The notes under the pieces are model-generated. The model was not told the DNA's origin, searched no databases, and saw nothing but the letters and a program-made list of their open reading frames with translations. Shown one piece after another: positions 4,468 to 52,162 of a stretch of DNA of 64,000 nt; position 1 is the stretch's first letter, and each line of letters begins with the position of its first letter. The stretch comes from Rhizobium sp. Q54 (GTDB taxonomy: Bacteria; Pseudomonadota; Alphaproteobacteria; UBA7879; VGCX01). Both the position numbers and the translations under genes were made by a program. The DNA is taken from positions 26,926 to 90,925 of the forward strand of contig CAMBTM010000001.1 in NCBI GenBank assembly GCA_945870825.1. The letters run 5' to 3'.

Positions 4468-4549
4468 ACCCCCATTTTTTCATATCTTCAACACATCCTT
4501 CATGGCATAATTCTTAAAGGACATTACGGTGACTTGTAGATAAGCATTC

Positions 4550-12611: not shown

Positions 12612-12774
12612 TAAACTATCTTAAAAACAAAAGGCGGACCAACGTAACGTCTCGTCCACCCCTCTTACGTACAATTTTTCCAGATTATAAGGCTTTTCCA
12701 AAAACCTTCAAGCAGAATTTCATCAACCACTAAGAGAAAGATTTTTGATTTTAACCAGGGAGGCGGAAATCTCT

Positions 12775-48869: not shown

Positions 48870-49032
48870 TACAATTCTCCAATCTCTAAAAGGACATGAA
48901 CGGTTTAAACGTTACATACCAAAAATTCATAAAATAATCCCAAAACAATATGGGACACAAAGCTTTTCATTTCAAGTTTTTGAACACTTAAAATATCTCA
49001 CTAGACTTAACCATCGTCTAAAGGAACAAAAT

Positions 49033-49109
<77 letters not shown>

Positions 49110-49122
49110 TTTTGTTATTAAG

Positions 49123-49197
49123 TGGTGGGCGATGACGGGATTGAACCGCCGACCCTCTCGGTGTAAACGAGACGCTCTACCGCTGAGCTAATCACCC
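49123..49197 (-). tRNA. tRNA-Val (anticodon TAC)
   Basis: Manual fold: GGGTGATTAGCTCAGCGGTAGAGC..., anticodon loop TTTACAC, T-arm GGTTCAATCC, CCA. Confidence 0.85.
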
Positions 49198-49269: not shown

Positions 49270-49545
49270 TTAACCAGCAATTTGATCTTTCAGTGTTTTA
49301 CCTGCACGAAACTTTGGAACGCATGTTGCAGCAATCTTCAAAGGCTCACCTGTACGAGGATTGCGGCCTTCTGTCGCCTTACGCTTTGCTGTCAAAAATG
49401 TCCCAAATCCAACAAGACGCACTTCGTCGCCCTTCGCTAATGTACTTGAAATAACTTCAAATACACTGTCAACCGCTTGACCAGCGGCTGCCTTTGTAAG
49501 GCCTGCGCGTTCTGCAACTTCTGTGATCAATTCATTTTTATTCAT
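49270..49545 (-). CDS. hupB: DNA-binding protein HU
   Basis: MNKNELI... start and GFGTF...GRNPRTGE motif. Confidence 0.85.
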   Translation of the reverse strand: MNKNELITEVAERAGLTKAAAGQAVDSVFEVISSTLAKGDEVRLVGFGTFLTAKRKATEGRNPRTGEPLKIAATCVPKFRAGKTLKDQIAG

Positions 49546-49753
49546 CATTTTCCTCTTTATTTGGAATATTGGTTAAACATCCGCGCATACTAGATTGATT
49601 CCCCAGAATTAGTCAACAATCCTTTTCGAAAAAGCATTTGATAGCATAAACAATTGGAAAGGTGGAAAAAGTAAAATTTATCAACTTGACGGAGACTAAA
49701 AAAATACCACACTCATTGGACGCACAGGCGTTGTAGACTTTATCCCACCCCAT

Positions 49754-49791
49754 TGACGCAGTGTCGCATTGTAATTATTATGTGATCACAT
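49754..49791 (+). promoter_or_regulatory. Candidate sigma70 promoter (TTGACG-N17-TATTAT) overlapping the perfect 12-bp palindrome ATGTGATCACAT, immediately upstream of mazE
   Basis: Seen directly. The palindrome at 49780-49791 overlaps the -10 hexamer, as expected for an autoregulatory TA operator. Confidence 0.5.
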
Positions 49792-49807
49792 TTGGGGGAA
49801 TGAAGCA

Positions 49808-50068
49808 ATGATGCAGGCAAAGATTATTAAAATTGGTAACTCAAAGGGACTCAGAATCCCAAAGGCAATCCTGGAGCAATGTAAAATGGAAAACATCGTT
49901 AATTTAACCGTAGAAGAAGGTAAACTTGTCATAACACCCTACAAAAACCCTAGAGAAGGATGGGAAGAGGCGGCACGTAAACTTGCTGCGAGTGGCGATG
50001 ATTCCCTTCTTGATGCAGAATATGTGGGATATCCCTTGGACAATGATGATGAATGGGAATGGAAATGA
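49808..50068 (+). CDS. mazE: MazE/PemI (AbrB/SpoVT-fold) antitoxin
   Basis: IIKIGNSKGLRIPKAIL swapped-hairpin motif and an acidic C-terminus. Confidence 0.75.
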   Translation: MMQAKIIKIGNSKGLRIPKAILEQCKMENIVNLTVEEGKLVITPYKNPREGWEEAARKLAASGDDSLLDAEYVGYPLDNDDEWEWK

Positions 50069-50388
50069 TAAGAACGTCTCGATTTGACGTTTTTCTTGTT
50101 TCTCTTGACCCGTCTCATGGACATGAAATACGTAAAACACGTCCCTGTGTTGTCCTATCCCCTAATGAATTAAATAACCACTTGAAAACTGTCATTATTG
50201 CTCCTATGACCAGTAAGGCTAGAGATTTTCCAACAAGAATTCAGACAACCTTCCAAGGAAAAAGGGGCAATATCATGCTTGAACAGATTCGCACCGTCGA
50301 TAAAACAAGACTCATGAAAAAGCTTGGAACATTAGATCCCACAACATCTTCTCTTTCTCTGATTGGTTTAAAAAGAATGTTCGAATGA
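50065..50388 (+). CDS. mazF: MazF/PemK-family endoribonuclease toxin
   Basis: MIRTSRFDVFLVSLDPSHGHEIRKTRPCVVLS signature. ATGA overlap with the mazE stop. Confidence 0.8.
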   Translation: MIRTSRFDVFLVSLDPSHGHEIRKTRPCVVLSPNELNNHLKTVIIAPMTSKARDFPTRIQTTFQGKRGNIMLEQIRTVDKTRLMKKLGTLDPTTSSLSLIGLKRMFE

Positions 50389-50864
50389 TGAAATTCCATC
50401 AGACATCCTTCTCCCTCACCCTTTTCCTCACATGGTTTGGACTTGGAAAACTTCCCAAAATGCCAGGCACATGGGGGTCCCTTGGTGCGTTACCGTTGAT
50501 TTGGCTCTTACACGATTCTCTGCCTCTTTCTATCACAGTTATCATCGGCCTCTTTGTCTTAAGCTGGATTGCCATTGCCTTTTATATAAAAGATACAAAA
50601 ATCCAAGACCCTCAAGAGATTGTCATTGATGAAGTGATTGGCCAGTGGATCGCCCTTCTAGGGGCCCCTCAAAGCGTAGGGTGGTTTACGGTTGGTTTTA
50701 TATTATTCCGGTTTTTCGATATCGTGAAGCCCTTCCCCGTTTCCTGGGCAGACAATTTAAAGGGATCCCTTCCTGTTCAATCCCTTGGTATTTTACTCGA
50801 TGATCTGTTGGCAGGACTTATGGCACTGGGCGTTTTGAACATATTGCTTTATTTTTTAGCGTAA
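50385..50864 (+). CDS. pgpA: Phosphatidylglycerophosphatase A
   Basis: FGLGKLPKMPGTWGSL motif. ATGA overlap with the mazF stop. Confidence 0.8.
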   Translation: MMKFHQTSFSLTLFLTWFGLGKLPKMPGTWGSLGALPLIWLLHDSLPLSITVIIGLFVLSWIAIAFYIKDTKIQDPQEIVIDEVIGQWIALLGAPQSVGWFTVGFILFRFFDIVKPFPVSWADNLKGSLPVQSLGILLDDLLAGLMALGVLNILLYFLA

Positions 50865-51279
50865 AAGCCCGCTTTTCAAAGGCCTCCATCAAATGGCTAA
50901 TCCCCTCTTGGAAAAAGGTCTCCATCACCTTTTGAAGAAAGCCGGACCGAAAGGCAAAATCAATAAAAAACTCCACCTCCGTCTCGTTTTCAGAAAGAGG
51001 AACAAAATGCCAATAGTTTTTTAAATGCTGAAAAGGGCCCTGTTCATAAACAACCTCAATATAGGTCTCCGGCGTCAACAACACCTTTGAAGTATAACTT
51101 TCTTTAAAGACGCCGTAGCCGATCGTCAGTTGCGCTCGAAGACTCCCCTCCCCTTTTTCCAAAATCTCTGCAGCCATACAGCCTGGCAAAAAAGTTGGGT
51201 AAGACTGAACATCTGCCACAATGGCATAAAGATGATCTGCCCCGTAGGGAAGGATTTTTTTATCGTGGAAATGACAACT
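50818..51279 (-). CDS. ratA: SRPBCC-family protein (RatA/COQ10-like)
   Basis: Polyketide_cyc2-like sequence. Conserved position next to lipA in alphaproteobacteria. The start is uncertain, with Mets at 51333, 51324 and 51279. Confidence 0.65.
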
Positions 51280-52162
51280 CATCTGTTTTTCCCATCCGGG
51301 CGATTTGGAGTTTCTTGAAGTCATCGCCAGCATGATAAGACGACCGCGTTAAGGGGGAGGCTGAAACCATCAAAAACCCTTTCCCGCGGGCCATACGCTC
51401 ATATTCCATAAATTCCGCTGGGTCCACAAACCGCATGACCTCATGATGATTAGGTGTTGGACGCAGATATTGACCAATGGTCATAAAGTCCACGTCTGCA
51501 CTGCGCAAATCATCCATCACCTGAAAAATCTCGCCCTTGTCTTCCCCAAGCCCCACCATGACCCCCGACTTTGTAAAGATGGAAGGGTCTAACTCTTTAA
51601 CGCGTTTAAGCAAAGATAATGAATGGAAATATCGGGCCCCTGGCCGGACACTCCGGTAAAGCCGAGGCACCGTTTCCAAATTGTGATTATAAACATCAGG
51701 CCGGGCTGCCACGACTTTTTCCAAGGCCCCATCTTTGCGTAAAAAATCTGGGGTTAAGACTTCAATGGTTGTCGTTGGTGAGGCTTGTCGAATGGCCTGA
51801 ATGGTTTGGGCAAAATGTTCTGCCCCCCCATCATCCAAATCATCTCGGTCAACAGAAGTGATCACCACGTGAGAAAGTCCCAAGGTGGATAGAGCCGCCG
51901 CCACCCGTTCAGGCTCATGGGGATCCAACAAATCAGGTCGCCCCGTTTTGATATTGCAAAAAGCACAAGCCCTGGTACAAACACTGCCTAAAATCATGAT
52001 GGTTGCGTGTTTCTTAGCCCAACATTCCCCAATATTAGGGCATGCCGCTTCTTCACAAACGGTGTGTAACTTAGACAAGCGCATCAGATCCCGTGTTTCA
52101 TTATATTCTTTCGAAACAGGGGCTTTGACCCGAAGCCAGGATGGTTTTGGAAGTATCGTCAT
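51260..52162 (-). CDS. lipA: Lipoyl synthase
   Basis: [12 protein letters not shown] and radical-SAM CAFCNIK motifs. Confidence 0.95.

Follow-up and report, generated by a model that had tools for sequence, protein, structure and literature searches.

A probably horizontally acquired mazEF pair fixed at the head of a predicted pgpA operon in a clade of uncultured Alphaproteobacteria

Can a toxin-antitoxin pair become hard to lose by lodging in front of a housekeeping gene? Chromosomal toxin-antitoxin modules are usually patchy in distribution and quickly gained and lost, and the reasons for their persistence are debated. The question is raised by a 64,000-nucleotide stretch of contig CAMBTM010000001.1 from Rhizobium sp. 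Q54 (the window, whose coordinates are used throughout), in which the genes of a MazE antitoxin and a MazF toxin are followed by pgpA, encoding phosphatidylglycerophosphatase A. We conclude that mazEF was probably acquired horizontally and is now fixed between the promoter and pgpA in a predicted three-gene operon. The explanation that we favor, and hold to be probable, is that a single mazE-mazF-pgpA transcript arises from a strong and probably autorepressed promoter and that ribosomes reach pgpA by reinitiating where mazF ends. The elements of this unit are as follows.

49753–49781, plus strand: probable mazE-mazF-pgpA promoter (−35 TTGACG at 49753–49758, N17, −10 TATTAT at 49776–49781)
49780–49791, no strand: candidate MazE/MazEF operator, the palindrome ATGTGATCACAT, which shares bases with the −10 and extends over the predicted start of transcription (putative function)
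49808 (or ATG 49811)–50068, plus strand: mazE, antitoxin (PF04014, 26.1 bits), stop TGA at 50066–50068
50065–50388, plus strand: mazF, PemK/MazF-family endoribonuclease toxin (PF02452, 96.6 bits), stop TGA at 50386–50388
50385–50388, plus strand: mazF/pgpA ATGA stop/start overlap, predicted termination-reinitiation site
50385 (or ATG 50388)–50864, plus strand: pgpA, phosphatidylglycerophosphatase A (PF04608, 143.9 bits)

The three reading frames form an overlapping chain with ATGA at both junctions, as an initial annotation of this DNA had described and as can be read directly in the window sequence; pgpA is the last gene of the operon. The ATGA overlap of mazE and mazF uses the mazF ATG at 50065. 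The mazF start is ambiguous, with in-frame ATGs also at 50053 and 50059, and one public gene call begins at 50053 to give a 111-amino-acid product. The alternative pgpA ATG at 50388 produces a 1-nt TGATG overlap with the mazF stop and is possibly the true start, judged by length homology with relatives. An exact look-up of the 159-amino-acid window PgpA returned no match; the gene callers of that collection use the second ATG (158 amino acids).

Is this chain peculiar to one genome? A search with PgpA yielded five further lineages (P0002–P0006), four with DNA (contigs L082, L085, L088 and L091) and one represented by gene calls; the window MazF is also encoded on a near-identical Logan contig (L001). 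All five lineages keep the order hupB← →mazE-mazF-pgpA ←SRPBCC-lipA-lpdA-pdhC-pdhB, as far as their contigs extend, and the 4-nt mazF/pgpA overlap is present in the gene calls of all five. The initial annotation had named, as one outcome that would count against it, mazEF occurring here in every relative with no coupling; the outcome is otherwise, since in all close relatives sampled, mazEF and the coupling occur together. The mazF/pgpA ATGA is retained in the window, L082, L085, L088 and L091, although the flanking codons differ: the junction is GCGCATGACC in the four DNA lineages, with mazF ending F-S-A-stop and pgpA beginning M-T-H-P, and CGAATGATGAAA in the window. At the mazE/mazF junction the overlap is conserved (4–16 nt across lineages) but the ATGA tetranucleotide is not. 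L085 and L088 end mazE with TAA, and their mazF start must be ATGGGAATGGAA, 10–16 nt inside mazE and 7 nt behind GGAG.

Amino-acid identity between the window and its relatives is 79–82% for HU, 80–83% for MazE, 55–72% for MazF and 88–90% for LpdA; for PgpA it is 53–70% over the five search lineages and 66–70% in the pairwise table. Synonymous sites are near saturation, with dS of at least 1.0 for every window-relative pair in the four DNA lineages, and dN/dS is 0.06–0.13 for mazE, 0.11–0.28 for mazF, 0.09–0.18 for pgpA and 0.12 for hupB. Conservation of the unit at such high dS and low dN/dS indicates that the cassette has long been inherited with its neighbors and that both of its proteins are under purifying selection, as is PgpA.

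The transcription signal upstream of mazE can be followed across the same lineages. The sequence TTGACG-N17-TATTAT overlapping a perfect palindrome, which the initial annotation had pointed out, is present, its start lying one base from the coordinate given there. It matches 10 of 12 consensus positions and is the sole plus-strand match between 49200 and 51400 in a consensus scan. Promoter-like sites as such occur at chance level (4 in 2.2 kb, against 3.6 ± 2.2 in shuffles), and no single element is statistically special; promoter, palindrome and ATGA are credible because of their position and their conservation in relatives. L082, L085 and L088 each carry a perfect TTGACA-N16-TATAAT at the position homologous to the window promoter, and an alignment of the hupB-mazE spacer (A1) shows as invariant the −35 bases TTGAC, the greater part of the −10 and ATGT-N4-ACATTT. 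That three diverged lineages match the consensus 12/12 at one and the same aligned position argues strongly for a real, strong promoter, and a promoter so strong would be expected to be repressed. The conserved element takes the form of an inverted repeat with 4–5-bp arms over the −10 and start site, not of a perfect 12-mer, and binding of MazE to it is plausible by analogy with E. coli (PMC3920265). The window gives a hint of an E. coli-like "alternating palindrome" (TCGCAT ... ATGTGA/TCACAT), which was considered and set aside; its upstream arm is not conserved in relatives.

The translation signals grade downward along the chain. The mazE Shine-Dalgarno sequence, GGGGGA, pairs with −8.4 kcal/mol in the window and −8.4 to −9.3 kcal/mol across the window and the four DNA lineages; in these five, anti-Shine-Dalgarno pairing of mazF is −3 to −6.9 kcal/mol, and pgpA has no Shine-Dalgarno sequence in any of them (−2.2 to +0.2 kcal/mol). 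A start that shares bases with the preceding stop and in none of these lineages has a ribosome-binding site would be the classic setting for termination-reinitiation. In L082 a tandem 12-nt duplication (L082:973–996, AATGGAGGAGAC / AATGGAGGAACC) copies the mazE Shine-Dalgarno and start region, giving two possible mazE starts there.

No sigma-70 promoter inside mazEF is conserved across the lineages. The window has no sigma-70-like site of at least 8/12 within mazE or mazF, and the relatives carry scattered 8–10/12 sites. A terminator-like hairpin at the mazF 5′ end (50070–50094) was examined as a regulatory element and set aside: its consensus fold is weak (−6.3 kcal/mol) with one compensatory pair, and it is explained by the codons of the conserved S-R-F-D-V-F-L. 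Co-transcription is predicted from the stop/start overlap, the lack of a terminator and the lack of a conserved internal promoter.

These observations are consistent with a model in which the three genes lie on one mRNA from the sigma-70 promoter at 49753–49781, which MazE or the MazE-MazF complex probably represses at the inverted repeat over the −10 and transcription start. MazE would be translated from its strong Shine-Dalgarno sequence and MazF from a weaker one, coupled to mazE by the overlap; ribosomes terminating at the mazF stop would restart at the overlapping ATG to make PgpA. How much PgpA is made would in this way depend both on autoregulation of the toxin-antitoxin pair and on ribosomes translating the toxin frame.

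Several points weigh against this model. Perfect 12-nt palindromes are as common in the window as in shuffles (16, against 17.5 ± 3.9). The palindrome upstream of mazE is a perfect 12-mer in the window only, the inner four bases varying among relatives (GTTC, GCAT, ATCC), and what survives of it as a conserved feature is ATGT-N4-ACAT(TT). Those bases overlap the −10/start region and may reflect promoter function, not an operator. The relatives are all metagenome contigs, from several independent groundwater and freshwater assemblies; samples holding the contigs include ERR3719156 and the KRAE22 and GROS21 series. The position of the catalytic Thr48 of B. subtilis MazF is Thr (T49) in the window, Ile in L082 and Ala in L085, and some lineages may have a less active toxin. 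Among mechanically called starts of the window the median pairing is −5.3 kcal/mol, and about one-third are weaker than −2.5 kcal/mol; the absence of a Shine-Dalgarno sequence at pgpA is therefore weak evidence alone. Co-transcription, and the dependence of pgpA on the mazE promoter, are themselves predictions from sequence.

The remaining points on that side concern independent expression of pgpA, in which an internal promoter in mazF would supply the relevant transcript and the overlap would be incidental. L085, L088 and L091 carry a TATAAT-containing site (9–10/12) 259 nt upstream of pgpA; its bases come from V-I-I codons, and neither the window nor L082 has it. Alternative sigma motifs (EcfG, sigma-54, sigma-E and sigma-32) were also scanned inside mazEF, and gave the only candidate for such a promoter in the window:

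50181–50207, plus strand: unvalidated sigma-32-like match, CTTG-N18-CCTAT, inside mazF

The match precedes pgpA by about 170 nt and conforms to CTTG-N17/18-CYTAT, which we take to be the alphaproteobacterial RpoH-type consensus. That motif is enriched, with 7 copies in the window against 2.1 ± 1.5 in shuffles. The other copies are at 12687, 16530, 26345, 26452, 39787 and 42288; two of the copies are intergenic, before nusA-infB and before a nucleotidyl transferase gene, the rest lie inside genes, and no other copy precedes a heat-shock gene. The match in mazF is complete only in the window and is built from the codons of the conserved MazF residues L-K-T-V-I-I-A-P-M, and even on a transcript with its 5′ end in mazF, pgpA would lack a Shine-Dalgarno sequence. 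We regard independent expression as improbable. An internal pgpA promoter was another outcome that the initial annotation had named as damaging to its proposal: sigma-70-like sites of the required quality are absent from mazE and mazF in the window, and the sigma-32-like match stays as a candidate. The proposed coupling of pgpA behind mazEF is supported as to the single chain, the one credible promoter, the missing pgpA Shine-Dalgarno sequence and the ATGA kept in the DNA relatives; the sigma-32-like match is what leaves an independent promoter possible.

What kind of toxin-antitoxin pair is this, and where does it come from? By sequence and architecture it is assigned to the MazEF/PemIK type II family. 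MazE has an AbrB/SpoVT-type N-terminal domain, matching PF04014 over residues 7–49 (cut-off 24.7 bits), and an acidic C terminus, DNDDEWEWK, of which EWEW is conserved in relatives. MazF falls in the PemK/MazF sequence family with its CcdB/MazF SH3-like fold: the match to PF02452 has E = 1.3e-27 (cut-off 23.1 bits), and phmmer matches to solved MazF, EndoA and Kid structures have E = 1e-9 to 1e-7. The equivalents of P15, G18, E20, R25, P26, N36 and R85, residues that matter for MazF activity (PMC8634880), are invariant in all five clade MazF sequences; of the B. subtilis residues required for RNA cleavage (G18, E20, R25, P26 and T48), it is the Thr that varies. Scores against the NCBIfam equivalogs are well under their cut-offs (E. 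coli MazF, 46 against 120 bits; ChpB, 32 against 129 bits), which places this MazF in a subfamily different from E. coli MazF/ChpB. Growth inhibition by MazF, its neutralization by MazE and autorepression of the operon are predicted, the last with sequence-level support from the conserved inverted repeat ATGT-N4-ACAT over the −10.

The mazF genes of L088 and L091 present a mosaic pattern. These contigs are 94–98% identical over most of pgpA and 98–100% further downstream, and only 61–76% identical in the 5′ two-thirds of mazF (codons ∼1–80, L091:45–285); the L091 mazF is closest to that of L082 (88% amino-acid identity). The pattern suggests recombinational replacement of the toxin allele, or accelerated toxin evolution, with mazE and pgpA conserved on either side; the contigs may instead be assembly chimeras.

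Relatives of the pair outside the clade, at the loci scanned, come without pgpA. A pattern scan of metagenome contigs with the clade MazF alignment gave 58 loci, one of them in-clade. About 50 of these loci encode a MazF 52–63% identical to ours together with a MazE 27–49% identical (mostly 36–49%), and downstream of MazF in none of the ∼50 out-of-clade loci is there PgpA or any consistent coupled gene. MazF homologs ∼55% identical are encoded on plasmids of Leptospira interrogans, Burkholderia and Paraburkholderia, and weaker matches (all <60%) on plasmids of Piscirickettsia and Legionella. G+C content at third codon positions is 0.36 in mazE, 0.31 in mazF and 0.475 in pgpA, against 0.44 ± 0.04 in long open reading frames of the window, a contrast that is only a modest signal because the genes are small.

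PgpA itself is full length, with residues 14–154 matching profile positions 2–140 of 141 in PF04608. It scores 94 bits against the 226-bit cut-off of the NCBIfam E. coli PgpA equivalog and is, by that model, a family member and not a strict equivalog. A PgpA scan of the GTDB species-representative genomes found no close relative (best 45–49% identity), and we took the ancestral context from the 80 best PgpA loci of those genomes, mostly Pelagibacterales, Rhodobacterales and alphaproteobacterial metagenome-assembled genomes. In 35 of the 80, pgpA lies within a few kb of, and convergent to, an SRPBCC gene, with lipA beside SRPBCC in most; the same neighborhood in the window supports orthology with the housekeeping copy. 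In the loci examined in detail pgpA belongs to an ispDF-pgpA-cinA operon with ispDF/pgpA overlaps of 4–11 nt. MazE or MazF is found near pgpA in none of the 80 loci, and ispDF and cinA were found neither in the window nor in the relatives' loci. In the nearest outgroup (P0007, P0008) the gene that pgpA overlaps is one of the LysE family, and E. coli pgpA overlaps thiL by 23 nt. Over 77 diverse loci, pgpA overlaps an upstream same-strand open reading frame by 1–30 nt in 55, a heuristic count in which the choice of start codon is biased toward overlap and many loci are related Pelagibacterales. Among the lineages next closest by LpdA (73–79% identical), the mazEF-pgpA arrangement was not seen in the available DNA, and in L152 a different gene follows SRPBCC. 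By LpdA the organism places as an uncultured alphaproteobacterium, its nearest named matches being metagenome-assembled genomes of Dongiaceae and Rhodospirillales (68–71%).

Some relatives have a longer PgpA (171–201 amino acids) through the in-frame insertion of a ∼120-nt palindromic element, absent from the window. The element lies at L091:593–725, with a remnant in L088 at ∼4479–4492; it has terminal inverted repeats TGTCACCCCCGCGAAAGCGGGGGCCCAGG, is translated ...VTPAKAGAQ...LDPRFRGGDK... and folds with −44 kcal/mol (z = −8.5). The core of the element recurs in these lineages between SRPBCC and lipA (L091:1493–1506, L088:5276–5289). It resembles the in-frame palindromic elements of Rickettsia.

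The two sets of loci bear on whether PgpA, or the phosphatidylglycerol/cardiolipin level, is integrated with MazEF as MazG is in mazEFG, toxin release and membrane-lipid remodeling being one stress program. The tight three-gene unit conserved across the clade would fit such a module, and mazEFG offers a precedent for an enzymatic third gene (PMC3920265). Against it, pgpA sits at its ancestral housekeeping locus by SRPBCC-lipA and encodes an ordinary full-length PgpA, and the same MazEF subfamily never carries pgpA at the other loci scanned. Nor are mazE, mazF and pgpA depleted of the MazF cleavage motif ACA relative to synonymous-codon shuffles, the other such motif, UACAU, being too rare to test. 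The Caulobacter higX gene, behind a different toxin-antitoxin pair, acts independently of HigBA (PMC13384398). A functional three-component module is in our judgment very unlikely.

The simplest history of the locus would have pgpA stay beside SRPBCC-lipA while a rearrangement brought hupB-tRNA-rpmF-plsX-fabH upstream. The ancestor of this small clade of uncultured, ∼45% G+C Alphaproteobacteria would have acquired a mobile, plasmid-type mazEF, fixed at the rearrangement junction directly upstream of the ancestral pgpA in place of the ispDF found there in other Alphaproteobacteria. The borders of the unit are these.

49270–49548, minus strand: hupB, HU-type DNA-binding protein (PF00216, 115 bits), the same neighbor in relatives
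49587–49616, minus strand: probable hupB promoter, TTGACT-N18-TAGTAT, from the consensus scan, both hexamers conserved in the window, L082 and L088 (A1)
50818–51333, minus strand: SRPBCC/COQ10-RatA-like gene (PF03364, 104 bits), convergent with pgpA, right border of the unit

On the left the insertion/rearrangement junction is bounded by hupB, which runs away from mazE; 259 nt separate it from the first plus-strand open reading frame of the chain. A second conserved block in this spacer, at 49676–49690 (AAATTTATCAACTTGAC), has TATCAAC(T/C)TG common to all relatives, ∼65 nt upstream of the mazE −35; it loosely resembles a DnaA box and may serve to regulate one or other of the two divergent promoters from upstream. 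Genes for tRNA-Asp(GTC) and tRNA-Val(TAC) lie on the minus strand at 49032–49197, between hupB and rpmF and ∼600 nt from mazE, and a gap at the tRNA position in the relatives' contigs suggests an equal layout. On the right, the SRPBCC gene scores 93 bits against the NCBIfam RatA "toxin" model, under that model's cut-off. The 3′ ends of pgpA and the SRPBCC gene share 47 nt (50818–50864) in the window, 9 nt in L082 and none in L088, and no terminator-like structure is found between the two in the window. L085 has a class I S-adenosylmethionine-dependent methyltransferase gene (L085:1440–2027) inserted between pgpA and the convergent SRPBCC gene, in the orientation of pgpA and 84 nt downstream of it, so the operon may comprise four genes there.

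Does the arrangement mean anything beyond proximity? In a neutral account, pgpA, habitually lacking signals of its own, landed behind mazEF after its separation from ispDF; the overlap then evolved, mazEF was kept for a function of its own such as phage defense or stress response, and the linkage has no regulatory or entrenching meaning. The general habit of pgpA to overlap its upstream neighbor, whatever that is (ispDF, thiL or the LysE-family gene), fits this account. So does the frequency of ATGA overlaps in this genome, where they recur among other gene pairs of the window. Retention of the module in all six lineages (the window and five relatives) at near-saturated synonymous divergence speaks against it, toxin-antitoxin modules being usually patchy. 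The account predicts the same expression mechanism as the model that we favor, and differs from it mainly in evolutionary interpretation; we think hitch-hiking of this kind possible, if on the unlikely side.

In the favored model of a coupled operon, a nonsense, frameshift or deletion mutation in mazEF, or loss of its promoter, would have a polar effect on pgpA, and loss of the cassette would be slowed. Such a ratchet, like the co-transcription, operator binding and reinitiation on which it would depend, is predicted from the DNA. It leaves one thing out: coupling cannot explain a MazF dN/dS well below 1, because missense changes are not polar, and the conservation of the MazF protein indicates that the toxin's own function is still selected, as the neutral account also has it. 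The proposed entrenchment of the module by the arrangement would therefore not suffice by itself, the amino-acid constraint on MazF (dN/dS of 0.11–0.28) requiring more than coupling alone. A stronger version would have mazEF domesticated as a dedicated pgpA expression module: PgpA would obligatorily need the antitoxin-controlled promoter and translation of the toxin frame, antitoxin turnover under stress would raise phosphatidylglycerol/cardiolipin synthesis, and the polar ratchet would fix the cassette. This version we consider doubtful. The initial annotation had further called pgpA essential, which it assumed: the E. coli enzymes PgpA, PgpB and PgpC are redundant, each being sufficient by itself (PMC11629553), and the rest of the present genome lies outside the 64-kb window.

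A full-text literature search combining pgpA with toxin-antitoxin or mazF terms brought up no account of such an arrangement. The locus is nonetheless a new example of a known one, a toxin-antitoxin operon with a passenger gene, here with predicted co-transcription, and not a new kind of system; both mazEFG and mazEF-sigB are co-transcribed (PMC3920265), and in Caulobacter a foreign higBA lies upstream of an ancestral higX (PMC13384398). Given these passengers and the overlaps of pgpA with its upstream gene in 55 of 77 loci and with thiL in E. coli, the description of the arrangement as unusual was overstated. What sets it apart from the known cases is the stop/start overlap of a toxin gene with a housekeeping lipid gene, the passenger's lack of a ribosome-binding site, retention in six lineages and the identity of the passenger.

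As in E. coli mazE-mazF-mazG, which has relA upstream, mazE and mazF have behind them, in the same orientation, an enzyme gene that is neither toxin nor antitoxin; co-transcription is known there and predicted here. In E. coli, MazE and MazE-MazF repress their own promoter through palindromic operator repeats (PMC3920265), for which the present locus offers a candidate repeat. The third gene of E. coli mazEFG encodes a nucleotide pyrophosphohydrolase that feeds back on ppGpp, whereas here it encodes a lipid phosphatase, overlaps the toxin stop, has no ribosome-binding site and follows a MazF of a different subfamily. Staphylococcus aureus mazEF-sigB, like that of Listeria/Bacillus, is a chromosomal mazEF at a fixed, lineage-conserved position, and the mazEF promoter contributes to transcription of downstream housekeeping/regulatory genes (PMC3920265, PMC5308263). 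There, however, the linkage is by read-through of a weak terminator instead of a stop/start overlap, S. aureus mazEF is not autoregulated and the downstream genes have promoters of their own.

The most similar system is higBA-higX of Caulobacter crescentus, also alphaproteobacterial, where a toxin-antitoxin pair of foreign composition stands directly in front of an ancestral gene with an envelope-related role and brings it under the promoter of the pair (PMC13384398). It differs in family (HigBA), in having a 42-bp gap in place of an overlap, and in distribution, higBA being upstream of higX in only a few Caulobacter genomes and mazEF being present in every sampled lineage of our clade. Compared with other pgpA loci, the locus shares the overlap of a distal pgpA start with the upstream gene's stop (ispDF-pgpA-cinA in Alphaproteobacteria, thiL-pgpA in E. 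coli) and, with the alphaproteobacterial ones, a neighborhood convergent to SRPBCC-lipA. In ordinary pgpA operons the upstream partner is biosynthetic; here it is a toxin gene of mobile origin, and cinA is missing downstream.

MazEF and PgpA are themselves ordinary whichever account holds, and the tail-coupled habit of pgpA makes the architecture less surprising; if the dependence of pgpA on mazEF is not real, the locus is one more case of pgpA riding behind whatever gene is upstream. The locus is a clean natural case of a plasmid-type mazEF vertically retained through substantial divergence and interlocked with a housekeeping lipid gene that lacks expression signals of its own. If the dependence is true, a selfish cassette would here have become hard to lose through promoter capture and termination-reinitiation coupling, and toxin-antitoxin autoregulation would be linked to membrane phospholipid synthesis.

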